Assembly: GCA_963805825.1 (NCBI GenBank)
Contig: CAWDVO010000022.1
Location: 79,641 to 143,640, forward strand
Length of the DNA: 64,000 nucleotides
Reading direction: 5' to 3'
From: Candidatus Brocadiaceae bacterium
Lineage (GTDB): Bacteria; Planctomycetota; Brocadiia; SM23-32
The translations under genes were made by a program, and so were the position numbers. Below are positions 3,296-42,155 of this stretch, piece by piece; position 1 is the first letter of the stretch; each line of letters opens with the position of its first letter. The notes beneath the pieces are model-generated. The model was not told the origin of the DNA. It worked only from the letters and a program-made list of their open reading frames with translations, and did no database searches.

Positions 3296-6200
3296 TCAGA
3301 CCAGCGGGCCGACCTGGAAGTCGCCGTCGACGTACGGGATGTCGCCCGGCCCGATCTTCGTCTTGCCGATGGCGATCTTGCCGAACTGCACGGCGTAGAT
3401 GCCGAAGGCGTCGCCGCCGTTGTCCGTCTCGACCGCGCCGATCTTGGCGCCGCTCAGCAGGCCGTAGACGTCCATCTCGGCACCAGCGAGGAAGGTGCCT
3501 CCGCCGCCCTTGCCGCCGCTCATCTGCACCTTGCCGGCGTCGCTGTAGACGGTGAGCTTGCCGCCGAAGTCGGCGCCCTTGAGCGCCAGGCTGCTCAGCG
3601 CGCCGTAGATGGACACGTTCGCGTCGACGGTCAGCGTTCCGCCGCCCTTGGGGCTGGCCGCGGACAACTTGCCCGCGTCCCCGAAGATGTTGAGCACGCC
3701 GCTGAAAACGCCGCCGGTGAGCGTGAAGCCCGCCAGCGAGCCGTCGATGGTCATAGTCGAGTCGAAGCTGCCGCCCAGGGCGAACTTGCCGCCGTTGCCG
3801 GACGCCTTGAGGTCGCCCGTCAGGCCGCCGGTCTTGCTGCCGAAGGAGCTGAAGGACAGCCTCTTCTTCGGGTCGGCCCCGTTGATGAAGACGTCGCCCG
3901 CCATGTTGCCGACGAAAGACACCTTGCCGACCGCGCCGTCCGTGAACAGCGCCGTGGCGTCCGCGGTGTCGCCGTCGCCGTCGATGTCGGGGGCGAACGT
4001 CACGCCGCCCATCGTCTTGCCGTTCAGGTCGTAGCCCGTCATGCCGCTATTGAGCGCCAGACCCTTGATCGCGCTCTGGGACGTGATGAAGGCGATGTCA
4101 CCGACGGCGCCCTTGCGGCCGTCCTTGATCGTGCCGACCGACGTCGCCCCGTGGATGATGATGCCGAGCCCGCCCATCGCCTGCGTGCCGCCCAGGCCGA
4201 TGGAACTGACCGAGCCGTCCTTGCCGAACTTGACGCTGATGTCGGCCAGGGAGACGTCCACCGGACCCGACACGTCGTAGATGGAGACGGTCGTGTTGCC
4301 CTGAGTGAAGACGCCGATGAAGCCCTCCTCGACGGAGACGGGTGTGGCCGACGCCGCCGTGTTGTTCGCCTCGTTGGTCTCGGTCACCTGGTCACCGACA
4401 TCGGCGTAGGCGATCCAGTAGTAGGTCCCGCCGGAGAGACCGCCGACCGTGCTCAGGTCGATGGGCACCTGGTAGGGCTGCGAGGCGCCGCCGGCCAGGC
4501 TGGCGTCGTTCATCGTGGTGACCAGCGTGTCCCCCGCGTCCCAGGTCTGGTCCGTGCTCAGGTAGACGCCCAGTTCGGATGCCCCGCTCGGGTCGGCGCC
4601 CGTGTTGTTCAGGGTCAGGCTCACGGTCCCCTGCCCCTCCGTCCCGATTTGCGTCGGGCCGGAGACGCCGCTGACGGTCAGGTCCACCTGCTGCGGCGGT
4701 TCGAGCGTCACCGGCAGCGTGGCGGCGGCCCAGTTGTTGTCCTCGTTGCTCTCCGGCACCAGGCCGGTCGTGTCCGCGTAGGCGATCCAGTAGTAGGTGC
4801 CGGTGGAGAGGCCGCCGACGCCGCTCAGGTCGACGCTCACCTGGTAACCCGTCGAGCTGTCGGCCGCCTGGTTCGAGATGGTCCGGCTGGCCACGAGCGT
4901 GTCGCCGGAGTCCCACGTCTGGTCCGCGCTGAGGTAGATGCCCAGGTTGAAGGCGCCGCTGTCCGCCGTGCCGGTGTTGTGGACTGTCGCGTCGACCGTG
5001 TCCTGCCCGTCGACCGCCATCTGCGCCGGGCCGGAGACGTCGCTGACGGTCAGGTCGGCGGTCGCCGCGGGCTGGGTGATCTTCGCCAGGAAGCCGTCCT
5101 GGTTCAGGGAGTAGTCGTTGTTGTGGCCGACGAGGTCGGAGGAGGTCGTCAGCCCGGCCACAAACGCGTTGTCCGACGAGTCGACGGCAGCGCCGTATGC
5201 CTGCTGCCCCTGCGCACCGCCCAGGAAGATGGCCCACTGCTGGGAGCCGCCGGAGGAGACCTGCGCGGCGAAGGCGTCCTGGAAGCCGTCGTAGGTGCCG
5301 ACGCTGCCGGTAAAGTCCGACGAGTAGGTCCAGCCGGTCACGACGGCGCCGTCCTGGGAGTTCACCGCGATGCCCTGGCCGAAGTCGCCGTTCGTGCCTC
5401 CCAGGTAGGTGGACCAGGTCAACGCGCCGGCGTTGGTGAGCTTCGCGACGAAGATGTCCTCGAAGCCGCCCTGGTAGTCGTTGTTCGCGCCCACCATGTC
5501 ATCGGACGGCGTCTGGCCGCTCACCAGGAGGTTGTCGTTGGAGTCGACGGCGACGCCCTGCCCGTAGTCGTCGCCGCTGCCGCCCAGGTAGGTCGACCAC
5601 TGCACGGCGCCGGCGGAGGAGAGCTTGGCCGCGAAGGCGTCATCCAGCCCGCCCAGGTAGTCGTTGGTCTTGTTCTGGAGGTCGGTCGAGTCGGTCCATC
5701 CGGATACGAGAGCGTTGTCATTGCTGTCCACGGCGACGCCGCTCCCCCACTCGTCGCCTGTGCCGCCGAGGTAGGTCGCCCACTGGACGTCGCCGCTGGA
5801 GTCCACCTGCGCCACAAAGGCGTCGCGATGGTCGCCCTGGAAGCTGTTGGTCGCGCCGTCCAGGTCGGTCGAGTCGATCATGCCGGCGATCAGGGCGTTG
5901 TCATTGGAGTCCACTGCGATGCCGTCACCCTCGTCGTCCAGGCTGCCGCCCACGTAGGTCGCCCAGTTCAGCGTGCCGCTGGAGGAAAGCTGCGCCACGA
6001 AGGCGTCCTGCGCGCCGCCCTCGTAGGTGTTGGTGATCATGGCGAAGTCGTCGGTGGACTGCGTCAGCCCCGTTATCAGCGCGTTGTCGGCCGAGTCGAC
6101 GGCAATGGCGTCCGCCTCGTCGTAGGCGCCGCCCCCCACGTAGGTCAGCCATTGGAGTTCGCCGGCCGAGTCCACCTGCGCCACGAAGGCGTCCCCGCCC

Positions 6201-15370: not shown

Positions 15371-15500
15371 CAGAACGGTCTCCCAGTTCATCCGGAGCCA
15401 CATGCGCCAGGCCCCGTTCTCGCCGGAGAGTCCACAGACTCCTGTCCATGGAAGAGAGCGCAGCCGCCTGCCGGAGACAACCGAGACGATGTCGTCGAAC
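15371..15500 (+). repeat. copy 1 (most diverged, with indels) of a ~150-bp intergenic repeat family
   Basis: GCCCCGTTCTCGCCGGAGAGTCCACAGACTCCTGTCCA aligns to copies 2 and 3 (GCCCCGTTTCTGCCGGAGCTTCCACAGACTCGAGTCCG and GCCCCGTTTCCGCCAGAGTTTCCACAGATTCCTGTCCA). A conserved minus-frame peptide motif VCG.SG.NGAW.M..W is present in all three copies. Confidence 0.5.
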
Positions 15501-16270: not shown

Positions 16271-16374
16271 GGGTGGGTCCTTTCATCGTTGTCCGGCACT
16301 CGTCGCGACAGAGCCGCCGGAGTCGGCCGACCTCAAGTAGCCGTCGGCGCCGCCATCTTACCACCACCAGATCC

Positions 16375-16529
16375 TCATCCACCATGCCCCGTTTCTGCCG
16401 GAGCTTCCACAGACTCGAGTCCGTTCCTGGCGAGGCAGGCACGCTATGGCACGGAGCCGCCCGAGACGGAGGATAGGCGGGGTCCGCCTTCGCGCAAGGC
16501 TACGGCGGACGAAAGTCAGAAGCCCGCGG
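16375..16529 (+). repeat. copy 2 of the ~150-bp repeat family, followed at about 16595-16650 by a degenerate tRNA 3'-half-like segment
   Basis: About 85% identical to copy 3 over about 140 bp. Downstream GCGTGGAGCGG...GTGAAATTCGAAC...GACGTCCAGC is collinear with the GCGTGGAGCGGGCGAGGGGATTCGAACCCCCGACGTCCAGC segment after copy 3. Confidence 0.55.
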
Positions 16530-16715
16530 CCGGGGCGCAGATAAGGACTGCTGGCACGGCCGGACGCTGGATGGCACGAGAAAGCGTGGAGCGGTCGACG
16601 GGACTCGCCGGGCGGCGAGTGAAATTCGAACTTCATCCGCCTGCCGGCGGACCGCGACGTCCAGCGTCTTTCTCTTGGCGCCGTGATTGGTGCGCCTCCC
16701 CTTGCTCCCCGGGCT

Positions 16716-17428: not shown

Positions 17429-17582
17429 AAGGCCCCGTTGCTGGTACCCGCGAGAAGTGACTGGACTTCGGTTAGGGCAGATGCCCATTCTCCTCAGTAT
17501 AGGCCCTTCATTGTGCTTCTGGCAAGCAGGCAGGGCGTGGCACCGCTGCGACTCGAAGGCCAAGACAGCTTCATCCAGAACT

Positions 17583-17707
17583 TCATCCACCATGCCCCGT
17601 TTCCGCCAGAGTTTCCACAGATTCCTGTCCAGCCCTGGCGCTGCTGGCACACTATGGCACGAAGGCGGCCGACACGGCGAGTTGGAGGAAGAGTCAGAAG
17701 CTCGCGG
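17583..17707 (+). repeat. copy 3 of the ~150-bp repeat family, immediately upstream of the tRNA-Gly 3'-half remnant
   Basis: TCATCCACCATGCCCCGTTTCCGCCAGAGTTTCCACAGATTCCTGTCCAGCCCTGGCG...CTATGGCACGAAGGCGGCCGACACGG...AGTCAGAAGCTCGCGG aligns with copy 2. Confidence 0.55.
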
Positions 17708-17755
17708 GGGTGGCCCACTTAGGCCACTGCTGTCACGTCCTGGCAGGTAATGGCG

Positions 17756-17806
17756 TGGAGCGGGCGAGGGGATTCGAACCCCCGACGTCCAGCTTGGGAA
17801 GCTGAC
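17756..17806 (-). tRNA. tRNA-Gly(CCC) 3'-half fragment (anticodon stem-loop through CCA), not a complete gene; att-site-like remnant
   Basis: Minus strand reads GTCAGCTTCCCAAGCTGGACGTCGGGGGTTCGAATCCCCTCGCCCGCTCCA. It matches E. coli tRNA-Gly(CCC) 3' half (AGCTTCCCAAGCT...GGGTTCGATTCCCTTCGCCCGCTCCA) nearly base for base. No complementary 5' acceptor strand (GCGGGCG) or D-arm upstream, so the cloverleaf cannot be completed. Confidence 0.6.
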
Positions 17807-18227
17807 GAGCGATGCCCCTAAGACACGACACAGGGCAGGCTTACAACTTACGTGCATGCCGTTTCCGCCCCCGTTTCCGCAACGCTTTGGGGTAACCGTT
17901 GGTCAGCGTGACGAGCGCGTCGGATGAGGAGGCCTGAATCGGTTTGGGCCCGGTCAGATGACCGCCCGCCAGGCACAGGTACAGGCGTCAAACTTGATTG
18001 CGATCAGCTGCTCCGAGCGCCTGGCAGTCACGACGCTCGGGCAACTGGCAGGTCAGACTGTCCGGGTTGCACAAGCAGAGCCGAAGGCTTGATCGCAACC
18101 CTTGCGCTGCAGAGACAGGCGGCCTCAAGGGAGCTTTGGCCCCAACTCTGTGCTCCGTGCCGGACCCGCGCGCGTCATAGGTCTGGGCGTCCCGCCACTT
18201 CCACCGGCTTCGTAGGCTCCTTGAGCA

Positions 18228-19640
18228 GGAGATACTCTTGAATGTTGTTGACGGAGGGAGGTGAGCGTATCTTTCGGGGAATGTCGCATTCGTTTCCCTG
18301 AGAGGCTCTCGCCAGAGGGCCAAGGAAGGATACGCTCGATGGGCAAGGATAGCGTGGTGGAGCTGCGAAAGCGAGTGGAAGCCGAGTCCAGGTCCACCCT
18401 GGACGAGACCCTGAGGCGGGGAGCCGAGCGCATGCTCCAGGTGGCGATCGAGGCGGAGGTGGCCGGCTATGTCGAGCGCCACGCCGCCCTGGTTGACGAC
18501 GAGACGGGCCGCCGCCTGGTGGTCCGAAACGGCCATCAGCGGGAGCGCACGATCCAGTCAAGCCTCGGCGAGGTACTGGTCACCAAGCCGCGCGTGCACG
18601 ACCGGCGTGAGGGCGAAGGGTTCACCAGCAGCATCCTGCCTCCCTACCTGCGTCGCACGCCGGCGCTGGAGGCGCTGATCCCCATCCTCTACCTGAAGGG
18701 CGTCTCGACCAACGACTTCCCCGAGGCGCTCTCGGCCATCCTGGGCCAGAATGCGGCCGGGCTCTCGGCCAGCACCGTGAGCCGCCTGAAAGACGTGTGG
18801 CAAAGGGAGCACGAGGAATGGGCGGGGCGCGACCTTACGGGCAAGCGCTACGTCTACTGGTGGGCGGACGGCGTCCACTTCAAGGTGCGCCTCACGGACG
18901 AGCGCCCGTGCCTGCTGGTCATCGTGGGCACGCTCGAAGACGGCACGAAGGAGCTGGTGGCCATTCAGGACGGGGAGCGGGAGAGCACTCTTTCCTGGCG
19001 GGAGCTCTTGAGGGAACTGAAGCGAAGGGGCATGGCCCAGGCCCCTGCCCTGTGCGTTGCGGACGGCGCCCTGGGCCTGTGGGCGGCGATGGCCGAGGAA
19101 CTGCCGGCGGTCAAGGAGCAGCGCTGCTGGGTGCACAAGACGGCCAACGTGCTCGACAAGATGCCGAAGAAGGTGCAGCCGGCCGCCAAACGCCTCATCC
19201 AGGAGATGTACATGTCGTCCACCAGGGCAGCCGCGCTGGAGGCTTACGAGGAGTTCCTGGCGCTCTACGAGGCGAAGCACCCGAACGCCTGCGCGTGTCT
19301 GAAGAAGGACAAGGACGTGCTCTTCACCTTCTACGACTTCCCGGCCGAGCACTGGAGACACTTGAGGACGACCAACCCGATCGAGAGCACCTTTGCCACC
19401 GTGCGGCACCGCAGCCGCCAGACGAAGGGATGCGGCTCGCGAGCGGCCACCTTGGCAATGGTTTTCAAGCCGGCGCGGGAGGCCGAGAAGACCTGGCGTA
19501 AGCTCAACGGCTACGAGCTGATCGCGAAGGTCATCCGGGGTGTGCGATTCGAGGACGGTGTGGAGGCGCGAGAGGCCGCGTAAACGGAGAGCCCGAAGGG
19601 TGCGCCAACACCTCCATCAACAACATTTGACAGTATCTCC
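18228..19640 (+). mobile_element. IS256-family insertion sequence, complete, with imperfect ~30-bp terminal inverted repeats and flanking direct repeat
   Basis: Left end GGAGATACTCTTGAATGTTGTTGACGGAGG (18228-18257). Right end CCTCCATCAACAACATTTGACAGTATCTCC (19611-19640), about 26/30 complementary. Flanked by direct repeat CTCCTTGAGCAGG (18217-18229 and 19637-19649), consistent with an 8-9 bp TSD partly overlapping the IR ends. Confidence 0.8.
18339..19583 (+). CDS. IS256-family (Mutator-like) transposase
   Basis: MGKDSVVELRKRVEAESRSTLDETLRRGAERMLQVAIEAEVAGYVERHAALVDDETGRRLVVRNGHQRERTIQSSLGEV...WWADGVHFKVR...LVAIQDG...CWVHKTANVL is characteristic IS256 transposase sequence, about 414 aa. The track ORF starts at 18261; the in-frame ATG at 18339 was chosen. 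Confidence 0.85.
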   Translation: MGKDSVVELRKRVEAESRSTLDETLRRGAERMLQVAIEAEVAGYVERHAALVDDETGRRLVVRNGHQRERTIQSSLGEVLVTKPRVHDRREGEGFTSSILPPYLRRTPALEALIPILYLKGVSTNDFPEALSAILGQNAAGLSASTVSRLKDVWQREHEEWAGRDLTGKRYVYWWADGVHFKVRLTDERPCLLVIVGTLEDGTKELVAIQDGERESTLSWRELLRELKRRGMAQAPALCVADGALGLWAAMAEELPAVKEQRCWVHKTANVLDKMPKKVQPAAKRLIQEMYMSSTRAAALEAYEEFLALYEAKHPNACACLKKDKDVLFTFYDFPAEHWRHLRTTNPIESTFATVRHRSRQTKGCGSRAATLAMVFKPAREAEKTWRKLNGYELIAKVIRGVRFEDGVEAREAA

Positions 19641-20626
19641 TTGAGCAGGGCCAGTGCCCGGTACAGGATCGGGTCTTCGCGAGGCAGTTCCAGAGGAGTG
19701 GTGGGGACGTGCACGTCAGGCTGTATCCCGCGCCCCTCGAAGCACGTCCCGTCCAGAAGCAGCGCCTGCCAGCAGGGCAACATGACGGTGACGCCGTTAC
19801 AGAGCGCGTAGGGCTGCGGGTTGCCAGAACTGCCGTATGAGGTCTCGCCCACGAGTACCAGCCGCGCACTCGCCTCATCATCAATAAGAAAGCCTCACTA
19901 CTGCTCCTGGTCGCCTGCCCCATGAGCACCGCGGTCTGGGCGCCGTAGTGCGGCCGGCCCCGTGTCGGCGCCAGCACTCTGTCCCATGGTGTGCTGAAGC
20001 CCGAACTGGCGCACGGGTCGCGTAGCTTGTGCCGCGCATAGACGACAGGCTCTCGCACAAAGCACCCAGCGAAGTGTTTGGCCACATCCTCCGAGCCGCC
20101 GCCATTGCTGCGCACGTCGACAACCAAGCCGCCCCCTTGCGAGAAGTTGTTGAGAGCCTCGAATGCGGGCTCCAACTCGAGGACTCTGTCCGCAGACCAA
20201 GTGCCTATCATGACGTACCCGATACCGTCTCCGAATCTGCCGACATAAACGCAAGGACTCGGGTGCGACCACTCGGCGGCGGCCCGCCTAAGAGTCTCAA
20301 GGTTGTAGTTGGGGACCACGTCCGGAGCGAAGCTCAGGAACGTCTCGCCGTCGACCTTCAGCGAGATGTGGGGGTCTCTGGCGTGCCCCAGGAGCAGGGC
20401 CGCCGCCCTCGCGAAGGCGTAGGGGGAATCAGCCCAAAGCAGGGACGCTGAATGCTCTTCGAAAAGACCGGCCCAGTCCAGGGAGTGAAGGCGATAGTAA
20501 GAGTATGAGTAATCAACTATGTCCTTCAGTTGGGCGGCGGCCGCCGTGTTGCGGGCACGACATCGGGCGATGTCGCGAAAGGAGGCAACCACTGCCCCGA
20601 TGCGGGTCCGGAGGTACCTGGCAGCA

Positions 20627-21058
20627 TCATTCATCCGAAATCCGGATCTGCCCCTCGAGGGATCTTACCAGATCTCGCCTAAACTCGGCGGCCGCCTTGC
20701 ACTTGCCGTGCCACAGCCAGTCGTGGAAGTGGAACTTCTCTGGACATTCCGGATTACTACACGCACGTACAGGGAAGTCCCGACAGACCTTGGGCCGCAC
20801 GTCATAGATTACGCAGAATGCCTTGCCATCGCGATGGTCCAGAAACGGGCACTCCTCTTTGCGCCACGGCTCATCCCCGTTGTCCGGATCGATCAGACGC
20901 CCACAGCACGGACAGATGTCCTTGAGCACGTCTTCCCTGCCGAGAGAGCGCCATCGTTCAATGTCGTCGCGGTGCACCATGTTGCGCAGCCATGCACCAC
21001 CTTTGCAGCACGACCCGCAGCGCTGGCATTTCCATGACAAGTCTGCCTTCGTTCTCAT
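20627..21058 (-). CDS. YkgJ-family CxxCxxCC (PF03692-like) zinc/iron-chelating cysteine-cluster protein
   Basis: 143 aa: MRTKADLSWKCQRCGSCCKGGAWL... with C-x2-C-x2-CC plus further Cys/His (CPCCGRL, CPF, CSNPEC). 8-nt overlap with the downstream S41 start; 24 nt after the B12-rSAM stop. Confidence 0.6.
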   Translation of the reverse strand: MRTKADLSWKCQRCGSCCKGGAWLRNMVHRDDIERWRSLGREDVLKDICPCCGRLIDPDNGDEPWRKEECPFLDHRDGKAFCVIYDVRPKVCRDFPVRACSNPECPEKFHFHDWLWHGKCKAAAEFRRDLVRSLEGQIRISDE

Positions 21059-21082
21059 TGCGGGGCGCTCCAGTGAGTTAGG

Positions 21083-22837
21083 TCACACCATGACAATGGC
21101 AGCTAAGTTGTCTTCACACTTCCTGTAGGTTCGCATGCACAGAGCTGCTGCCCGGTCGCGACCGCCAGGGTCACCGGCACTCAACCGGTCAGCGATCTGC
21201 TCGAAGGTAAGCTTCCCCGCGAAGTAGCGGTAGCACTCCCTTTCCTCCGCGGTGAGTTCGAACGCTTTCGGCGAACGCTCGTTGATGACAAAAGAGTCGT
21301 TCCAGGCGGAAAGGGTGTTCCCGTCAGCTCGCACGGGCGCGCACGCCATCAGACGTTCTGCCAACACTTCGGACAGAAAGCGATGGTCCTTGCGGCGCCT
21401 ACGTGTGACGATGTCCTCCACGTGGCGAAAGCGCCAGAGCTGCCTGACAATGAGGGACAACATCTGGCGTTCGGACGCAAGTACCACGAACTCCTTGAGT
21501 TCTGCAGCCGTTAGGAACGAGCATGCCTTGTCGAAGCTGTATCTCGATACCTCGTCCTTGAACAGGGTGACGAGCTGCTCGACCTGATCGCGCGACAGCT
21601 CGGAATTCCCCCCAAAGCAGTCCCTCGCAACAGTCCCCGTCACAAAGTCGTCATCCAGAAGCTCAAGGCCCCACGCTTCGGCGTTCTCCCTGAACTCTGT
21701 GCCGGGGAAAGGCGTAAGGGCCGAGACCTCAAGTTCAATCCGCCCGGGCGCCAAGTCCACAAGGCGCTTGGCGAACTCTATGTCACCGCGCACGTCTTCC
21801 TCCGTCTGCCCGGGTAAGCCGCATATAAAGGCCCCAAACACCGTAGGCACGGCAGCTTCGCTGCACTGGCTCACGACGGCCGTGATCTGCTCGACTCGCG
21901 TCTGCTTGTTCATCCGATCCAGCAGCGCCTGGCTGCCCGATTCGATGCCGATCTGCAGGCGCACAAGCCCTGACGCCTTCATCCGCCGGACTAGCTCAGG
22001 GTACTTCGCCAAGACGTTCACCCGGCCTTCGCAGTAGAACCCGAAGCGCGACTTGTCCGGGAACAGGCGGTCCATGATGTCGCAAACGGAATGGACCCGC
22101 TCGGGCGAGACAGTGAAAGTGTCATCGGCGAAGCTCAGATACAGCGCCCCCGCTGCATACCTGTTCTCGAAACGCCGCAGCTCGGCCTCGACCTGAGCCA
22201 TGCCAAGGGGCCGGTACCCGTGAGTCTTCCGGCCCTCACTGCAGAAGTGACAGGCATAGAGGCAGCCACGAGATGTCACTACGGAGGCCATATAGGGCGC
22301 GTCTTCGTCCAGCAATGAGTAATCCGGCAACGGAATGCACGCCACGTCTGAATATGGCCCGAAGTCCACCGGGGTCGACCGCGTCTTGCCATCCTGGACG
22401 TAAGTCAGGCCAGGTATCGCCGGCAAAGTGCCCTCGTCTTCGAGGAGATACCGGGCCAGCAGCAGCATGGGGTACTCTCCCTCCCCCCGCACCACGATGC
22501 GCCTTTCGGTGGCGTATGGCTCTGCCATGCAGGTCACGTGGGGGCCGCCCAGCACCACCGTGACTTGCGGGAACTCCGCCAAGACACTGTCACTCAAGCG
22601 CACGACACGGAAGATGTTGTCGCTGTCGCAGGTGAAACCCACGAGGCAGCGCTCTGTCCCGTCGACGGCTTGCTCGACATCAGGCCACGAGAGGTCATCG
22701 AGCTGTAGGTCGAACACAATTGTCGGAATGCCGTGGTCGCGCAGGACGCTACCGAGGTACAAGAGGCCAAGCGGTGGGCGTATGGCCCCACCACGACTAG
22801 GAAAGCGCACCGGCGCATTGACCAGTATTACCTGCAT
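21083..22837 (-). CDS. B12-binding (class B) radical SAM enzyme
   Basis: N-terminal cobalamin-binding-like domain (MQVILVNAP...GLLYLGSVLRDHGIPT...VVLGGPHVT) followed by radical SAM core CLYACHFC (C-x3-C-x2-C) and TIM-barrel motifs (LQIGIESGSQALLDRMNK). Start at internal ATG 22837 chosen to avoid a 78-bp overlap; the track start is 22924. Confidence 0.7.
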   Translation of the reverse strand: MQVILVNAPVRFPSRGGAIRPPLGLLYLGSVLRDHGIPTIVFDLQLDDLSWPDVEQAVDGTERCLVGFTCDSDNIFRVVRLSDSVLAEFPQVTVVLGGPHVTCMAEPYATERRIVVRGEGEYPMLLLARYLLEDEGTLPAIPGLTYVQDGKTRSTPVDFGPYSDVACIPLPDYSLLDEDAPYMASVVTSRGCLYACHFCSEGRKTHGYRPLGMAQVEAELRRFENRYAAGALYLSFADDTFTVSPERVHSVCDIMDRLFPDKSRFGFYCEGRVNVLAKYPELVRRMKASGLVRLQIGIESGSQALLDRMNKQTRVEQITAVVSQCSEAAVPTVFGAFICGLPGQTEEDVRGDIEFAKRLVDLAPGRIELEVSALTPFPGTEFRENAEAWGLELLDDDFVTGTVARDCFGGNSELSRDQVEQLVTLFKDEVSRYSFDKACSFLTAAELKEFVVLASERQMLSLIVRQLWRFRHVEDIVTRRRRKDHRFLSEVLAERLMACAPVRADGNTLSAWNDSFVINERSPKAFELTAEERECYRYFAGKLTFEQIADRLSAGDPGGRDRAAALCMRTYRKCEDNLAAIVMV

Positions 22838-22845
22838 AGACACGA

Positions 22846-24078
22846 TCAGTTCGCTTTCCGCATGACACGAACGGCCAGCAGCACTGAAAGCCCAACCACG
22901 ACGACTGCTGCGCCCAGTCCCCACGGCAGCCAGTTCCCGGCCGGCGCAACTGGGACAGCGGCAACCGGCGCAGCACGGGGTTCTCGGACTTCAGCCGGCC
23001 CGCCCTCGGGCGTGTGCGTGAAGGACTTCGCTGGCAGCGCCGCTGGGGCACCGGCACCGGCAGAGGAGCTAGCAACCTCCAGGAGCGCGCCAGGGCGTGG
23101 CTCCAGGACCGCGTCTGTCCTGTCTCTTGCCGCGGCCAGGAGTTGCTTTGCTGTGCCGGCCATGTGGTGGGTGGGGAACCGGGCCAAGTAGGTCTCGAAC
23201 CATCGCGCTGCCTCCGAGTATAGTCCCGCATGGAACGCCGTCTCCCCAAGCCGGTAATAGAGGGCCGCCAATGCCGGATCGACCCGGTTGTCGCGCAGTT
23301 CCGATTCGGCGACAACGTCAAACTCATACAGCCGCAAGCTGCCAGGCTCCTGCACGATCCCGGGTGTCTCCAGCGGGAAGAAGTAGGCGGCCCGACATAT
23401 CCAATCCCTGTTCCTATAGGACCGGATCAGCTGCCGCTCCCCTTCCATGAAGCCCGCTCGATCGCTCTTGTATTTCGTGAGGTAAACTTCGAGCAGTTGG
23501 CCCAGGAACAGCGATTGCTGCACTTGCCAGTCCTCCGTTCCGCCCTGCGATGCCTCTTCCAGCAAAGCGTTCCCCGCCGACAGAATGCTCAATGCCGTGC
23601 TGTCTGAACCAAGTCGGACTGCAGTCCGGGCATTTTGCAACAGCATGCGCCCCGCAGAACCGCACTCCTGCGACAGAGCAGTCCCCCCTCCCTCCACCAG
23701 GCCGGCAACGGTCTTGCTGCATTCAGCCAGTTCAGCAATGTGCTTCTGACGTAGCGCAGCCAAAGCGGCCCCGCTGGCTGCTGCCGTCTGGAGGTCACGG
23801 ACATGGTCGAGCTGCGCCGCCAGCTCCCCATACTGCAGCAATTTCAGATGCTGCACCGTCTCGTCCTGCGTTCCGCCGGTCGAAAGTTCGCCGATCTTCG
23901 TCATTTGGCGGGTAATGAGTTCTGCCGCCTCGCCAAGACGTCCGCCTGCGATCAGTTCGACAGACTGTCTCCGGGTCTGGAACATCTGCCCCACAAGCTC
24001 TCTCGCGGTCTCGGCGGATGCCGTTACGCAGAGCGACACGACTACCGCGATGGCTACAGGAATGCACCGCCGTTTCAT
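22846..24078 (-). CDS. membrane-anchored periplasmic protein with N-terminal signal peptide, TPR-like helical region and C-terminal TM anchor
   Basis: 410 aa. MKRRCIPVAIAVVVSLCVTASA signal. TPR-like YYRLGETAFHAGLYSEAARWFETYLARFP. C-terminal WLPWGLGAAVVVVGLSVLLAVRVMRKAN. Confidence 0.55.
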   Translation of the reverse strand: MKRRCIPVAIAVVVSLCVTASAETARELVGQMFQTRRQSVELIAGGRLGEAAELITRQMTKIGELSTGGTQDETVQHLKLLQYGELAAQLDHVRDLQTAAASGAALAALRQKHIAELAECSKTVAGLVEGGGTALSQECGSAGRMLLQNARTAVRLGSDSTALSILSAGNALLEEASQGGTEDWQVQQSLFLGQLLEVYLTKYKSDRAGFMEGERQLIRSYRNRDWICRAAYFFPLETPGIVQEPGSLRLYEFDVVAESELRDNRVDPALAALYYRLGETAFHAGLYSEAARWFETYLARFPTHHMAGTAKQLLAAARDRTDAVLEPRPGALLEVASSSAGAGAPAALPAKSFTHTPEGGPAEVREPRAAPVAAVPVAPAGNWLPWGLGAAVVVVGLSVLLAVRVMRKAN

Positions 24079-24094
24079 CTGTCACCTCCTCCTT

Positions 24095-25045
24095 CTACGC
24101 TGTGAAACAGACGGCAACTATCGCGCTCCCAATCACGCCTGTCGTCAGATTCGCGACCGTCGGGTCATCGTCCGCGCCGCAGCTATGAGTATAACACGAG
24201 TCGAAGTCAATGCCAAGTAAACAGCCGTCACTCGGACCGCATACGTTTGAAGTCCCACATGTGTTGCTTGCAGGCTTCCCGCACGTGTTCGTTGGCTCAC
24301 AGAAGTCCTTCTCGCAGTAATTCGTAACGTTGCAGGAATTCTTGAGTTCACACTCGTTGTCGTCCATGCAGACGTTCTCATCGTCGCATGAGTTCAGTCC
24401 CCAGCAGTGATCTCGAGTCGCGCAGGCATTAGCAGCTTCACAGTTGTCCGTGCCACCGCACAGATCATAGTCACACTGATCTGTCGAGGAACACGTGTCC
24501 GTTCCACTACAAGCGTTAGTGCCCGCGCAGATGTCTGACACGCAATTGTCATTGACCCAGCATGTATTGTAGCCCTTGCATCCGTCGCTGCTCTGGCAGT
24601 AATCGGTCGCGCAGTTGTTGCTGCTGCCTGTGCATGTGTCATATGCCTGGCAGTGATCGTCCTTCCCGCAGTCATTACGTCCCTGACAATAGTCACCGCT
24701 GGCACACGAGTCGTTCGTGTTGCACGTGTTCGTGACAGTGCAGGTGTTGCTCGTCGTACAATTATCCGTCGTCTCGCATGTGTTGTAAGTGCAGTTGTTT
24801 GTGCCGGAGCACACATTGGACGCGTTACATGTGTTCGTCGTACACGTCTTCGTTACCAAACACGTGTCAGAGCTGGTGCACGTGTTTGAGCCGCACGTAT
24901 AGGTTGGAGTACAGTTACAGTCTGCATCGGCTGCCCTCGGAGCCACGCCGCTGCCAACCAGCATGAGCCCTCCGACAGCCAGCGCCGTCTGCCCTACTGA
25001 GACGAGGAAACGCCGCCGACTACTCCGGTTCTCGTTCCGCTCCAT
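24095..25045 (-). CDS. Tat-signal cysteine-repeat protein: about 43 Cys arranged as about 40 consecutive C-x4/5 repeats rich in T/N/D/S; candidate substrate of the adjacent radical SAM/SPASM enzymes
   Basis: 316 aa. MERNENRSSRRRFLVSVGQTALAVGGLMLVGSGVAPRAADA is a twin-arginine signal. Then CNCTPTYTCGSNTCTSSDTCLVTKTCTTNTCNASNVCSGTNNCTYNTCETTDNCTTSNTC... continues for about 260 aa with Cys every 5-6 residues. About 18 C-x3-D and several C-x3-N motifs. Ends in a hydrophobic tail TVANLTTGVIGSAIVAVCFTA. Confidence 0.7.
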   Translation of the reverse strand: MERNENRSSRRRFLVSVGQTALAVGGLMLVGSGVAPRAADADCNCTPTYTCGSNTCTSSDTCLVTKTCTTNTCNASNVCSGTNNCTYNTCETTDNCTTSNTCTVTNTCNTNDSCASGDYCQGRNDCGKDDHCQAYDTCTGSSNNCATDYCQSSDGCKGYNTCWVNDNCVSDICAGTNACSGTDTCSSTDQCDYDLCGGTDNCEAANACATRDHCWGLNSCDDENVCMDDNECELKNSCNVTNYCEKDFCEPTNTCGKPASNTCGTSNVCGPSDGCLLGIDFDSCYTHSCGADDDPTVANLTTGVIGSAIVAVCFTA

Positions 25046-25125
25046 AAGTCACCTCCCTTTGGCATTTGGCTCAGCCTTGGCCGAGGCAGCGGTGCTGGCC
25101 GCGACCGATGCTGTTACTCAGTGGC

Positions 25126-26322
25126 TTACCATGTCCAGTGAAAGACCCAATCATGCAGCTGACTGTAGAAGGGGGGATCACTCTCACTTAGCCAGGCGAG
25201 ATGGCTCGCGATGGAAGCATGGACCACCCTCATCGCCTTACAATACCCAGAACCGGGGTCGAACAGGTCACCGTTGGTCTGCCAATTTGCTGCCGGGCAC
25301 CCACCGCCGCAGAACACTGCTGCCTCGCAGTTCGAGCAGTCTGACTTCAGGTCCTTGCGCACATCCACGGTCAGGAAGGCCCCCCGGCGATCGGGATGCC
25401 AGCCGCCGCCGGTATGGCCAATCAGCCATTCTTCTCTGGCTTCGATACCATTGAACCTATGGCATGGCCAGAGAAAGCCCTCGACGTCGACATGCAAGAG
25501 GCCCCGGCCCGCCCCGCAGGGCGCCGGCTGCATCGGCTGTCCATCACGCTGTACATACCTGTCCAGCCAGGTAAGCGAGTAGAACCTGCCTGCATTCTTC
25601 ATGCGTTCGGTGTGGATCCGCAGCACTTCCCGAGTTTGCTGAGCGAGCACCTCAAGTCGGTCAGCCGATTCCCACGCCGCAGAATGAGCAAGGTCGAACG
25701 CCACCTTCAGAAAGCCCTTGTCCAAGAAGTACGCGAAGCTCTCCGCCATCCGGTCCACCGTTTCCGGCACAACCGTGCTTCGAGCATGCGTTGTCCTCCA
25801 CGCCTTGAAGATACGCCGGAGGTTGCGCTCAACGGTCGCCGAGCTTCCCGTGCCGTCGGGATAGACGCGGGCGGCGTCCTGGACCTCTGGCACCCCGTCG
25901 ATCGACGAATGGATGCCTATATGCCAGAAGCGGAACAGCTCAAGATGCTCTTCAGTGAAGCGCGTCAGATTCGACGTGATGCCCACCGTCAGTTCTTTGT
26001 CGCGCTGACGACAGTAGTTGACGGCGAACGGCATCCAGTCTCGCAATGTGTCGAAGGCACACATCGGTTCGCCGCCCAACACCGAGATGTGCAGTTGTTC
26101 AGCGTCGCCCGAGTGCTTCACAAGCCATCGCACCATCTGCTTGGCGGTCTCCATGCTCATCCGGCGACGGAGCATGTCTCCCTTGAAGCAGTACGTGCAC
26201 CGAAGGGTGCATTCCTCCGTGAAGTCGACATCGAGCGACCTCACGGGCATCTCAAGAGGCGAGGGCCCTGTCTCCGGGAACGCTATGCGTTTCTTGAACA
26301 GAGTGCTCTCAAACGTTGGCAT
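25126..26322 (-). CDS. radical SAM / SPASM-domain enzyme (anSME/PapB/QhpD-like peptide-modifying family)
   Basis: 398 aa. CTLRCTYC (C-x3-C-x2-C) at residues about 38-45. C-terminal SPASM motifs CGAGRG...WPCHRF...CSNCEAAVFCGGGC...YCKAM. Confidence 0.75.
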   Translation of the reverse strand: MPTFESTLFKKRIAFPETGPSPLEMPVRSLDVDFTEECTLRCTYCFKGDMLRRRMSMETAKQMVRWLVKHSGDAEQLHISVLGGEPMCAFDTLRDWMPFAVNYCRQRDKELTVGITSNLTRFTEEHLELFRFWHIGIHSSIDGVPEVQDAARVYPDGTGSSATVERNLRRIFKAWRTTHARSTVVPETVDRMAESFAYFLDKGFLKVAFDLAHSAAWESADRLEVLAQQTREVLRIHTERMKNAGRFYSLTWLDRYVQRDGQPMQPAPCGAGRGLLHVDVEGFLWPCHRFNGIEAREEWLIGHTGGGWHPDRRGAFLTVDVRKDLKSDCSNCEAAVFCGGGCPAANWQTNGDLFDPGSGYCKAMRVVHASIASHLAWLSESDPPFYSQLHDWVFHWTW

Positions 26323-27735: not shown

Positions 27736-28750
27736 AGGGCTCTGTAGAAAACCTACGGATCGGTAGTTAGAGGATCATGAGGTCGTGTGTCAGGACGCGG
27801 ACATAGCACTCGGCGTGACGCATGGCCCGCTTGCGCGCTCTGAGGCTGTCGCCCAGCCGCCGCTTGTGCTGGCTGATGGCGCTCTCGACGTGCGAGCGTT
27901 GGGCGGCCTTGCGCACCGGGAAGTGGCTCTTCATCTGACGCCTGTAAGGGCCCTTCGGCCTCACCTGCGGCCGTCCTCGGTCGTTGATGGGGATGATGGT
28001 GCAGGCGATGCCCAGCTCTTCCCTGCACAGACGGTGATGGGCCTCCGAGTCGTAGGCCGCGTCGGCGTAGAGGGTGTGGATGCGGAGCCGGCCTGCGGCC
28101 GCCCGCACCAGCGGCGGCAACAGGGGCGACTCGTTGCCCGGGCCGGCCCGCGCCAGGGCAGAGGCAAACATGTGCGTGCTGTGCTCGCAGAGCAGGGCCA
28201 GGCGCGGGAAAGGCGTGTAGCTCGAGGTGCGCCGTCCCGTGCGGCGCAGGTAGTAGGGGCTCACATGCCCGCTCTCCAGTCCCGTGGCGTCGACGGAGAC
28301 CTCGGCCTGCTGCGGTATCAGTCCGCGCTGTGCCGCGCGGGCGAGAGCAGCATCGAACAGAGGTCCCCAAAGCCCCTTTTTTCCAGGCGCTGCTGGGCCT
28401 TCTGCACGGTGGTGAGATGGGGGAGCTTCTTCAGGTGCAGGGCGTCTCTGAGCGCAGGCAGGTCGGCCAGCAGCTGCACCATGCCCCGCCAGTCGGTCTT
28501 GAAGAACTGCCGCAGCACCATGATGGCGAAGAGCTGGGAGAGCGTGAAATCGTGGCGCGAGCTGCTGCTGCCATAGCGTGGCAGGCCCTCCTCGCCGAGG
28601 GCGAGGGCCTCCTGGGCGAGGGCCAGCGGGGACTTGCTCATGCTGCGCGAACTGGGCATCGGCCGGCTCCCGTAGGGAAGTCTCTGTGGCCATAGCTGCT
28701 TTACTTGTGCCCATTCGCCGACCCCTAAGTCAAGTTTTCTACAGAGCCCT
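27736..28750 (-). mobile_element. IS5-family (IS427-group-like) insertion sequence, 1015 bp, perfect 17-bp terminal inverted repeats AGGGCTCTGTAGAAAAC, flanked by CTCAT direct repeat
   Basis: Left AGGGCTCTGTAGAAAAC at 27736-27752. Right GTTTTCTACAGAGCCCT at 28734-28750 is the exact reverse complement. CTCAT at 27731-27735 and 28751-28755. Two overlapping transposase ORFs inside. Confidence 0.75.
27767..28659 (-). CDS. IS5-family transposase, orfA and orfB joined by a putative -1 frameshift at an A6G run
   Basis: orfA (about 114 aa from ATG 28659): ...SSRHDFTLSQLFAIMVLRQFFKTDWRGMVQLLADLPALRDALHL (DUF4096/InsH N-terminal-like). orfB in the -1 frame has a DDE domain ...VSVDATGLESGHV...LYADAAYDSEAHHRLCREELGIACTIIPINDRG. 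Slippery site CTGGAAAAAAGGGG on the minus strand (A run = complement of 28377-28382). Confidence 0.7.
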
Positions 28751-39301: not shown

Positions 39302-39995
39302 CGCCGCTGTCCGTCACCTTCTCCGCTCCCGACCTCTGGCTCGAGTCCAGGCTCCTGGCGGTGGAGGGCTGGGGTGTGTAGCCGGTGAGTTCGGAACTCA
39401 GCCGCACCTGCTGGAACTCGAGCCACTCCCGCCACTCGGGGCGCTTCTCACGAGGTAGGGCAGACTCCACCAGGTCCAGGGTCTCCTTAGTTTGCTCCCC
39501 CATCCGGACATACGTGCGAACGAGATTGCCCATCACCAGAGCGTTCCCAGGTGCCAGGCGCAGGGCGGTACGGTACGCCTCCGCGGCTTCACGTAGCTGG
39601 CCGCCCCTCTCGAGCACCAGGCCCATGTTGTAGTACGGCTCATATTGCCTGAGCACGGAAGCCGCGGCGTCAAACGACACGGCCGCAGAGTAATAGTCAT
39701 GCAGCCGGTAGTACACAACGCCCAGGTCGTTCTGGGCGGTACCGTAGTAGGGGTCGTTCTGCAGCGCCAGTCCGAAGAGACGCTTGGCCTCTTCAAGCCG
39801 CCCCTCCGTCAACGCCCGTGAACCATCGGCGTACAGTCTCTGCGCCCGCTCCTTCGCCTGGTTGCTCTCCAGAAGGAGGGCATCTATGCCCTTCGGGGCA
39901 CCCCGGCTCGCTGCACAGCCGTCCGAAAGGAACCCGAGCACAGCCATGAAGCCGAACGCCAGCAGAAGCAGCGGTTCGCGAGATGGTCCGGTCAC
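39279..39995 (-). CDS. TPR-repeat lipoprotein, possible secretin pilotin (PilF/Tgl-like)
   Basis: 238 aa. Lipobox GFLSDGC. TPR repeats (AKRLFGLALQNDPYYGTAQNDLGVVYYRL...). Immediately downstream of the secretin with a 4-bp overlap. Confidence 0.5.
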   Translation of the reverse strand: MTGPSREPLLLLAFGFMAVLGFLSDGCAASRGAPKGIDALLLESNQAKERAQRLYADGSRALTEGRLEEAKRLFGLALQNDPYYGTAQNDLGVVYYRLHDYYSAAVSFDAAASVLRQYEPYYNMGLVLERGGQLREAAEAYRTALRLAPGNALVMGNLVRTYVRMGEQTKETLDLVESALPREKRPEWREWLEFQQVRLSSELTGYTPQPSTARSLDSSQRSGAEKVTDSGGAVRDGG

Positions 39996-42155
39996 TTGGC
40001 ACCTCCTATGGCGATAGGGTCGCTCGTCGGATAGCCGCTGCTGACCCCTGCTGCTTCGGCGTTCTTCTCGCTGACGTGCTTGAGGACCTCGAACTGGCGG
40101 TCCCTGACGATCGTCAAATGAACGAACGCATATACTGTCACGTTGGTTCTGCTGTTCGACCTGTTCTGGAACAGGAGCCCCAACAGAGGCACGCGTCCGA
40201 GCAGAGGGACCCGATCGATGGAGTGACGCACATCGCTGTTTCGCAATCCCCCGATGATGATGGTGTGACCATCGGGCACGACCGCCACGCTTTGTATCGA
40301 GTCGGTGGCCCGCGGCGGCGGCACGTTCGGGGTCGGCGGTTCGTCGGTGAAGGTGTTCATCGTCAAGAGGTCCTCCAGGCGAATGGAGTTCGATTCGCTG
40401 ATGTGGGGAATGAGCTCAAACGATGTGCCCGCCGTCGCATAGCCGCCGAAGGTGGTCGTTGAGACTGTCTGTCCCTCATTGATCGATGTGAATGGCTGTT
40501 CCTGCACGCTGTCGATGACACCATGTGCGTTGTCGTTGACGAGCAGCTTGGGCGCGCTGCTGATCGTGGCGTCGCCGCTCGATTCTAGTGCGTGAATTAT
40601 CAGCGGAACGTCGTCCGGACGAACTATCGCTGTAGTCAGGCCGGACCGCACGAGGGGCACCCTGGCGCCTGTTGCGGGGTCTAGCGTGGAGAGGCCGAAG
40701 GCTGTGAAGAGAAGGTGCCCCGTGCCATGGGCGCCCGGCAAGTCGGAAGATTCGACTTCCACCCCAAGTGAGAAATCGTCCGTGGCCGCTATCTGCACTA
40801 TGATGGCCTCGATGAGCACCTGCGCTTTCGGCCTGTCGAGCTCCGCAATCAGCCGGCCGATCTCCTCCTGCTGCCTCGCCGTGGCCCGCACGATGACGGC
40901 ATTCGCCTCCTCATCGGGACCTGACGGCCGGGCGCTCCGCCACAACCCCCGCTTCGGGCGTTTCAGCCCCTTGGCCGGCTGTCCCCGGCGTCGGCTGCTC
41001 GGGCGGCGAAGGCGTTGCCGGTGCCGTTGTCTCGCCCTTTGGAGTGCCGGGCTGGTACTGAACGCCTCGAAGGCTGACGCCTCGCGAGCCGGTGGTCGCA
41101 ACGCCTCGGCCTACACCGGCTCCCGTCCGCCCCGCCTCCGTGGTATCGAGAAAAAGGTCCGATATGACCTGGGCGACCGATGCCGGCGCCGAGTTCTCCA
41201 GCCTGTAGACGCGAACACCGCTCGGCACTTCCCGGATCGGCACGTCTACCTGGCGCAGGAACTCCTGAATGCGGTCCTGGTCTTCCTGCGTTCCGGTTAC
41301 GATAATCGTGTTGCCCTGCTCACCCAGGGACACTGCCAGGCGGGGCTCCCCCTTCTCCTGTCTCCCCTCCGCCAACCCGAAATGGGTCAGCAAGTTATCG
41401 TAGACCTCTTTCGCGTCGAGGTTCACGATCTGGTAGTTGCGGACCTGAACTGACCGGGGCTGGTCGAGTTGCCGGGCGAGCTCAGCGAGCTGGGCAACGG
41501 TCTGGTCACTGCCTCTAAGTACGAGGCTGTTGCTCTGGGCGCTCGCGAAGAGCGAGAGAGCTGAACCTGCCGATTCGCCAGTGGGGTAAAGCCCCTTGAG
41601 TTTGTCGGCGAGGTCCTGTGCGGAAGCCCGATGCAGCTGAACCACTCGGATGGCCGGCGCAGCGGACGGCACATCCAGTAACGCAATCACCCTCTTGGCC
41701 TCCGTCAGTGCTCCCGCCGTGTCGTAGATCACGAGGTCGCCGGACTGCGGTTCAGCTACGACCTTCCCCTGCTTGCTCAGGAACGGTTGGACCACGGGCG
41801 CCAACTTGACAGGATCGAGATGCTGCAGTTCCACCACGGCCTTCTCGACGCCGTAGCGTTGCTGGTATTCCTCCCAGCTCATGACGTTGACCGCGTCGCC
41901 CTCTACCACGTAGGTTGCTCCAGAGGCGTCCACGGCGCGCCGCAAGAGTTCCATCGGGTCGATGTCTCGGCCCCAGACGCCCACGCGGGCCTTGACCTCC
42001 GGACTCACGAAGATGCTCAGGCCGGTCGTATCAGATACCACCTTGCAGACGGCCCGGATGTCGGTGTCGGTGAACTCCACCCTCGGGATTGGCGCGAAGG
42101 TGCGTGTGTTCGCCTGACCGGCCGAGGCCCCAGGCGCGCCGGTCACTTCCGCCAT
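39992..42155 (-). CDS. gspD: secretin GspD/PilQ family, apparently frameshifted (two overlapping ORFs 40911..42155 and 39992..41101)
   Basis: N-part carries secretin N-domains. C-part carries ANAVIVRATARQQEEIGRLIAELD... and the secretin C-domain VPLLGRVPLLGLLF...TNVTVYAFVHLTIV. The 190-bp overlap lies in different frames. Confidence 0.65.

Follow-up and report, generated by a model that had tools for sequence, protein, structure and literature searches.

Introduction

Insertion sequences (IS) of the IS256 family range in size from about 1.2 to 1.5 kb and duplicate 8 or 9 bp of their target. For this family 8-bp duplications, imperfect terminal repeats of ~31 bp and transposition by copy-out/paste-in have been documented; ISCth4, for example, is 1,503 bp long, and both it and IS256 itself generate duplications of 8 bp (PMC7780238). 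A second body of work concerns apparent frameshifts, in that sites of methylation motifs are a major source of consensus errors in nanopore data, indels included (PMC6591954). Both come together in a 64,000-nucleotide stretch of contig CAWDVO010000022.1 from a Candidatus Brocadiaceae bacterium (positions 79,641 to 143,640; the whole stretch is called the window below), where an S41 peptidase gene is interrupted near its 3' end by an IS256-family element and in addition carries an internal frameshift. The initial annotation of this locus had taken the gene to be the maturation protease of a Cys-repeat operon, doubly disrupted by these two lesions, and had left two outcomes standing: a system in decay, or a frameshift due to assembly error with loss of the last 13 residues only. 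The analysis reported here favors the second outcome, with a probability of about 0.8: the IS256-family insertion clips only the tail of the protein, the S41 domain is kept, and the frameshift is most likely a consensus error at a GTAC site.

The insertion sequence and its boundaries

The element is an IS256-family insertion sequence with intact ends and an intact transposase (Table 1). It is 1,411 bp long and holds one uninterrupted open reading frame (ORF), the product of which matches Pfam PF00872 (Transposase_mut, Mutator/IS256) with E = 3e-59 and 201 bits (cutoff 21) over profile positions 13–377 of 379, and the NCBIfam IS256 equivalog NF033543 with 303 bits (cutoff 150). What characterizes the family is present throughout: transposase scores above the thresholds, a length of ~1.4 kb with a single ORF, imperfect terminal repeats and a short target duplication. 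The best annotated plasmid relatives of the transposase also belong to the IS256 family, none of them being more than 58% identical to it across the full length. Under the convention customary in ISfinder we take the element to be a new and unnamed member of this well-known family, and its insertion to be a routine event.

A repeat search of the region returned inverted repeats at 18227–18257 and 19611–19641 (31 nt, 87% complementary), and a degenerate pattern prepared from their consensus matches only the two IS ends in the entire window (0.00 matches expected in shuffles). The same search found an exact direct repeat of 13 nt, CTCCTTGAGCAGG, at 18217–18229 and 19637–19649; because the inverted repeat overlaps it, the ends of the element are not readable from the window copy alone. 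A terminal-repeat scan of the GTDB species-representative genomes yielded two loci, both in other organisms, and did not return the genome of the window. One of these, at 173–1587 of a contig from an alphaproteobacterial metagenome-assembled genome (MAG; locus L005), is an unannotated full-length copy, 83% identical over 1,419 nt, that starts with GAGATACT, ends with ATATCTC and bears the 9-bp duplication GGCGCTGTA on both flanks. The other, at 3311–3382 in a Brocadiaceae MAG (locus L004), is a partial copy that also begins at GAGATACT. Copies in such distant phyla indicate that the IS lineage has spread horizontally.

The ends of the alphaproteobacterial copy and its 9-bp duplication set the window element at 18229–19639, with a target duplication of 9 bp. 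The remaining CTC and G (3 + 1 bases) of the 13-mer are tips of the IS that by chance equal the neighboring target bases; the exact 13-mer of the initial annotation therefore exists as described, and it is only as a target duplication that it has to be shortened to the 9 bp CTTGAGCAG.

Table 1. Coordinates in the window of the insertion sequence, the interrupted S41 gene, its upstream neighbor and the loci at which the assemblies disagree
Feature	Position	Strand	Remarks
IS256-family insertion sequence	18229–19639	+	ends GAGATACT...AGTATCTC; boundaries from the 83%-identical full copy in L005
Left terminal inverted repeat	18229–18257	+	29 nt, 25/29 identical to right repeat
Right terminal inverted repeat	19611–19639	-	abuts the body of the S41 gene
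Target-site duplication, left copy	18220–18228		CTTGAGCAG
Target-site duplication, right copy	19640–19648		CTTGAGCAG; minus-strand codons Leu330-Leu331-Lys332
Transposase gene	18339–19583	+	414 amino acids from ATG; open frame reaches GTG at 18261; uninterrupted
S41 peptidase gene, codons 1–258 and first two bases of codon 259 (TG-)	19859–20634	-	ORF; Pfam PF03572; homolog alignment
S41 codons 260–332, in shifted frame here	19640–19858	-	rest of S41 domain and last helix
Displaced native S41 3' end	18175–18219	-	Glu333 and PTKPVEVAGRPDL; stop at 18175–18177; from in-silico excision
Frameshift site	19855–19859		one base missing between 19858 and 19859; GTAC at 19855–19858 adjoins
Upstream CxxCxxCC (PF03692) gene	20627–21058	-	stop overlaps S41 start ATG by 8 nt
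Discordant locus	22475		G in window, A in L002, absent in L001
Discordant locus	22004		G or A
Discordant locus	21480		T or C
Discordant locus	20920–20921		GGAC, GTAC or TAAC
Discordant locus	19858/9		absent, C or T

Effect of the insertion on the S41 protein

Read on the minus strand, the S41 ORF passes from ...RALALLKE directly into the IS. When the IS and one copy of the duplication are removed in silico, a single frame is restored, ...LLKEPTKPVEVAGRPDL followed by the stop codon, and the native end of the protein then reads ...YRALALLKEPTKPVEVAGRPDL. The reading frame recovered by excision, together with the repeats and the Pfam and NCBIfam matches, bears out the earlier description of a precise insertion near the 3' end of the gene by an IS256 element with intact inverted repeats and a duplicated target, and of a native 13-residue tail, PTKPVEVAGRPDL, that resumes after the left repeat. 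The insertion lies after codon 332 of 346. Glu333 is re-formed by the GAG with which the IS begins, so that the fused product retains residues 1–333 and then continues, in place of the 13-residue tail, with 41 residues that the end of the IS encodes in antisense. The 374-residue protein P0001 (...LLKE-ILSNVV...), found in public assemblies, is exactly this fused product.

With the missing base restored, PF03572 gives one match of 75.4 bits (cutoff 24) to residues 138–310, covering profile positions 2–165 of 165; as assembled, the match falls into two pieces of 39.8 and 18.3 bits, with profile positions 2–110 in one ORF and 117–165 in another (19511–19852). Since the Pfam domain ends at residue 310, the insertion lies 22 residues beyond the S41 domain. 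In an alignment with 21 other sequences (20 homologs and P0001), 20 of the 21, at 37–50% identity, stop 1–8 residues past the LLKE position, and judged by this alignment the 13 lost residues are a lineage-specific, non-conserved tail.

The AlphaFold model of P0001 (33 sequences) has a mean predicted local distance difference test (pLDDT) score of 90.2 and a predicted template modeling (pTM) score of 0.86. Values of pLDDT above 90 extend over residues 21–340, including a last helix (322–340) that runs across the junction, and the IS-encoded tail is of low confidence, with values falling from 54 to 35. The best matches of the model in the PDB are complete PDZ-less S41 proteases of 310–315 residues, 8vcb and 4l8k (target-normalized TM-score 0.81–0.83; Foldseek E 5e-25 to 4e-24 over ~315 columns), and a profile search agrees, with a match that is nearly end-to-end. 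On the evidence of this model the insertion is unlikely to destroy the S41 fold. Residues S244, E247, D173, R175, N177, G179 and G180 are invariant across 22–33 homologs, the window protein included; S244 and E247 belong to the nucleophile motif ...SS(C/S)E..., and D173–G180 form the oxyanion segment D-x-R-x-N-G-G-G. We infer that the fused protease may still be active and may act on the Cys-rich protein of its operon.

The frameshift and its association with GTAC sites

Three sister contigs are available for comparison, each from its own accession: L001 (ENA ERZ25039500), L002 (Logan ERR11523667) and L003 (Logan ERR11594398). All three encode P0001, and the window matches them at 99.1–99.9% identity. 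Exact-sequence searches with the CxxCxxCC protein, the 367-residue S41 ORF product and the transposase of the window itself had no match on record. The base missing from the window is the third position of codon Cys259, and the placement of the gap is unambiguous: TG-GTAC in the window is aligned with TGCGTAC in L001 and L002 and with TGTGTAC in L003, both alternatives encoding Cys. The product of the sister contigs aligns unbroken with ~20 homologs, and the restored Cys259 is the conserved Cys of ...VPGCKLVG...; P0001 and the homologs read ...SSSEAFLLMMRRVRGCVLVGETSYGSS... where the family consensus is ...SSCEAFLLMMKQVPGCKLVG..SYGSS.... A frame switch at a TTT run near 19889–19897, which would give ...EAFLIDDEASARLVLV..., was rejected, as P0001 and the homolog alignment read ...EAFLLMMRRVRGCVLVG... 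at this point. The initial annotation had been right that the gene contains a frameshift, and had put it at 19885–19895, ~30 nt away from the gap; both of the peptides on which it relied are open across the overlap, which explains the imprecise position.

The window and the three sister contigs were compared over 19640–25547 (5.9 kb, outside the IS interior), and only five discordant loci were found (Table 1). At two of them it is the G of a GTAC that varies, at one the base directly following such a site and at one the base directly preceding it, and the fifth is GTAC in two of the assemblies. There are 13 GTAC sites in the 5.9 kb; counted with the bases beside them they take up 1.3% of the positions, and the binomial probability of at least four of five loci falling there is ~1.5e-7. 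At the GTAC site of 22475, a one-base deletion in L001 truncates the call of its B12 radical S-adenosylmethionine (SAM) gene to 461 amino acids, and L003 starts exactly beside the same site. The concentration of discordances at GTAC points to a basecalling or consensus artefact as the cause of the frameshift. A modification of GTAC in the DNA of this organism is probable from the comparison of assemblies, and the error at 19858/9 would then be linked to it. Further GTAC-adjacent frameshifts were sought by a screen for ORF gain (at least 60 codons), which returned 10% at these sites against 13% at random positions and has no discrimination in this GC-rich DNA; it did bring to light a frameshift in a secretin gene, away from any GTAC (see below).

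From these data the one-base deletion is most likely not biological and is instead an artefact of assembly or consensus. The course of events that we propose is as follows. An IS256-family element, moving by copy-out/paste-in, would have integrated after codon 332 of the 346-codon gene for a cytoplasmic, PDZ-less S41 protease and produced a 9-bp target duplication; the GAG of its tip would remake codon 333, and 41 residues of IS antisense would replace the 13-residue tail. With the S41 domain and terminal helix untouched, the insertion would probably be tolerated, which would explain its presence in every available assembly of the population. The frameshift, for its part, would be a base-modification consensus error at the GTAC site, as in nanopore-type data.

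The description of the protease as doubly disrupted is accordingly not supported, given that the base is present in three sister contigs and that the insertion is 22 residues past the S41 domain with the predicted fold kept; nor does the locus speak for a decaying system if, as is most likely, the frameshift is an artefact and the IS clips only a dispensable tail. Of the two outcomes that had been proposed, the one that fits the sister contigs, the GTAC association and the end of the domain is a loss confined to the last 13 residues, the frameshift being due to assembly error.

Alternative explanations

Several observations weigh against the interpretation given above. Over 6.2 kb aligned with L002 the window shows just 3 substitutions and no gap other than that at the frameshift site, and the many long intact ORFs in the window show that the assembly is not grossly error-prone. 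A second split gene, encoding the secretin of type II secretion (39992–42155, minus strand), is broken by a frameshift inside a Secretin_N domain at ~40915–40935 (ORF 40911–42155 holds N0 and Secretin_N, and ORF 39992–41101 the second half of a Secretin_N and the Secretin domain), and this frameshift is not beside a GTAC. In the S41 protein and its homologs the usual CtpA-type G-K position reads G-S-S, without the canonical Lys of the Ser-Lys dyad; His89 is invariant in all of them and is, we presume, reminiscent of a tricorn-type Ser-His arrangement. Finally, the empty site GTAGGCTCCTTGAGCAGGGCCAGT, the presence of which in relatives had been suggested as a check, has no exact match in Joint Genome Institute (JGI) metagenomes, and the native tail is a reconstruction.

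It is unlikely, in our estimate, that the deletion is real and that the S41 gene of the window strain is a pseudogene truncated after residue 258, kept intact in sister strains and, with the IS, under relaxed selection. The gene already tolerates an IS, the window is otherwise nearly identical to the sister contigs, and the split secretin could likewise mean genuine pseudogenization. The split secretin also shows that S41 is not the only gene of this assembly with an indel. Against a real deletion, the absent base is exactly the one that varies between C and T among the other assemblies, it adjoins a GTAC like every other discordance (an independent hit at such a site having a probability of ~1e-3 to 1e-2), and L001 has a deletion of the same kind at another GTAC site. 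Improbable to a further degree is the broader proposal that the three-state site (C, T, absent) is biological, the window strain being a natural S41 knock-out in a population that keeps the gene and the GTAC sites of the shared 8-kb block genuinely prone to change, as restriction pressure on a mobile block might bring about; were it true, the strain would offer a ready comparison for the need for the protease in maturing the 316-residue Cys-rich protein with its Tat signal. We regard it as very improbable that the GTAC-linked differences are altogether real polymorphisms, arising for example by restriction-site avoidance on the mobile block, with a genuine hot spot of mutation or selection at the Cys259 site. 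At three of the five loci (22475, 22004 and 20920/1) a GTAC is indeed destroyed in at least one assembly, GTAC is mildly under-represented in the window (143 sites versus 210 expected), and the block has other flanks in L001; but at two loci the GTAC is intact and nothing but its neighboring base changes, at two a single base is deleted and an essential reading frame thereby broken in one assembly, and the start of L003 exactly beside one such site is what would be expected of read-level ambiguity. A programmed ribosomal frameshift that regulates the protease has practically no probability left: both frames are indeed open for ~30 codons around the site, but in the sister contigs, which have the extra base, the protein is read from a single frame, TGGTACT offers no slippery heptamer and the homologs are all single-frame, so that the sister contigs and homologs have effectively refuted it already.

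The remaining alternative is that the IS junctions are chimeric assembly artefacts and that the S41 gene is uninterrupted in the organism. L001 crosses the entire element and both junctions without a difference within ~240 bp of either end, whereas L002 and L003, which are short-read-like, cross the S41-side junction and then stop ~260 bp inside the element; between 19400 and 18470 the interior of the L001 element differs from that of the window at 32 positions, which suggests a repeated element that is hard to assemble. These stops and differences are as expected if other, diverged copies of the element exist in the samples. The S41-side junction is nevertheless identical in 4 assemblies and both junctions are identical in 2, and the same junctions in independent contigs are not assembly chimeras; a perfect 9-bp duplication surrounds canonical IS ends, and the scan of JGI metagenomes for the empty site, as noted, had no match. 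Chimeric junctions are hardly credible when the same junction is seen in three near-identical contigs. A genuine insertion that spares the S41 domain is the reading retained here. As to its age, the perfect duplication and intact transposase agree with the description of the insertion as recent; it is, however, present in each of the four assemblies, among them some with differences elsewhere, and is no peculiarity of the window.

For annotation, the S41 gene would be recorded as intact apart from an IS-replaced tail and not as a doubly broken pseudogene, and the radical-SAM/Cys-rich cluster is not to be dismissed as decaying on this evidence. The accumulation of assembly differences at GTAC is also a warning about single-base frameshifts in this assembly, others of which, that in the secretin gene for example, may be artefacts.

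Operon context

The S41 gene is the last of a radical-SAM/Cys-rich cluster on the same strand, in which the CxxCxxCC gene immediately upstream (Table 1) is preceded by genes at 21083–26322 (minus strand) for a SPASM radical SAM protein, the 316-residue Cys-rich protein, a 410-residue tetratricopeptide repeat (TPR) protein and the B12 radical SAM enzyme. For the SPASM radical SAM protein the best match in NCBIfam is to the PapB ranthipeptide maturase, with 217 bits where the cutoff is 340. The Cys-rich protein has a twin-arginine-like N-terminus and no match in Pfam or NCBIfam. The closest sequence relatives of the S41 protein (~50% identity) are planctomycete proteins of 435–450 amino acids that carry a signal peptide and an additional domain at the N-terminus; the window protein has neither, which fits a cytoplasmic role. 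In the interval 17700–20700 a scan for promoters and terminators gave nothing above shuffles. Rfam and ARAGORN gave no tRNA or other RNA at threshold.

That the S41 protein serves as the maturation protease of this operon is suggested by local synteny, that is by gene order, shared strand and the 8-nt overlap. Conservation does not bear the assignment out, as the arrangement is shared by no relative. S41 homologs at 44–50% identity lie in unrelated neighborhoods, orthologs of the B12 radical SAM enzyme (~52% identity) are not accompanied by an S41, CxxCxxCC, SPASM or Cys-repeat gene, and the gene set of the cluster was not found in any relative within the collections searched, so that no conserved co-occurrence of S41 with other genes of the operon is seen in relatives. 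A scan of metagenomes with the B12 radical SAM protein returned only relatives at 23–24% identity, and a scan of viral sequences with the S41 profile only relatives at 23–27%. A second, unrelated transposase gene (27767–28714, minus strand; Pfam DDE_Tnp_1) is located 1.4 kb beyond the SPASM gene; its best NCBIfam match is to the IS5 family, below the model cutoff.

Edges of the shared block and composition of the window

L001 shares with the window only an 8-kb block, 17569–25547. The joints in L001 are at 5088/5089 and 13076/13077, corresponding to window positions 25547 and 17569. At the former, phage head and tail genes (GC 0.684) abut the block, and a phage ORF and the SPASM gene are both cut at the joint; beyond the latter are three ORFs, a tyrosine integrase and an HTH_17 gene. 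L002 likewise ends exactly at 25547, and the window carries the SPASM gene unbroken and at full length. The block edges in L001 are either a real rearrangement or a product of a chimeric contig.

A repeat is present in three diverged copies (71–79%) at 15387–15448, 16362–16607 and 17570–17776, and the similarity of L001 to the window decays inside the third. The last two copies end in a piece that resembles the 3' part of a tRNA, 17767–17818 (minus strand) scoring 21 bits on the Rfam tRNA model, below the gathering score; ARAGORN called no tRNA at these pieces. The copies look like stacked remnants of attachment sites. A step in composition occurs at ~15500, with a GC content of 0.68 over 1–15.5 kb and of 0.61–0.64 over the remaining 48 kb, and with third-position GC of 0.89–0.96 in the longer ORFs of the first 15.5 kb and ~0.7–0.8 beyond. 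This step could be an island boundary, or a mis-join of two organisms at the repeat.

Comparison with known systems

The element resembles IS256 of Staphylococcus and Enterococcus and ISCth4 of Clostridium thermocellum in having a single ORF for a Mutator-type DDE transposase in ~1.4 kb, imperfect terminal inverted repeats of ~30 bp and a short target duplication of fixed length. Unlike these two, with their duplications of 8 bp, it has a duplication of 9 bp both here and in the alphaproteobacterial copy, and its target here is GC-rich, not AT-rich. The S41 protein shares overall fold and size with the PDZ-less S41 proteases of Bacteroides fragilis (8vcb) and Parabacteroides merdae (4l8k), at an identity of only 21–23%. 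The discordances between assemblies, in turn, are like the errors seen in nanopore data at methylation motifs such as Dcm CCWGG, in that both kinds of change, substitutions and single-base deletions, cluster at one palindromic motif of a few bases; unlike that example, the motif here is GTAC, and its modification is proposed from the comparison of assemblies.

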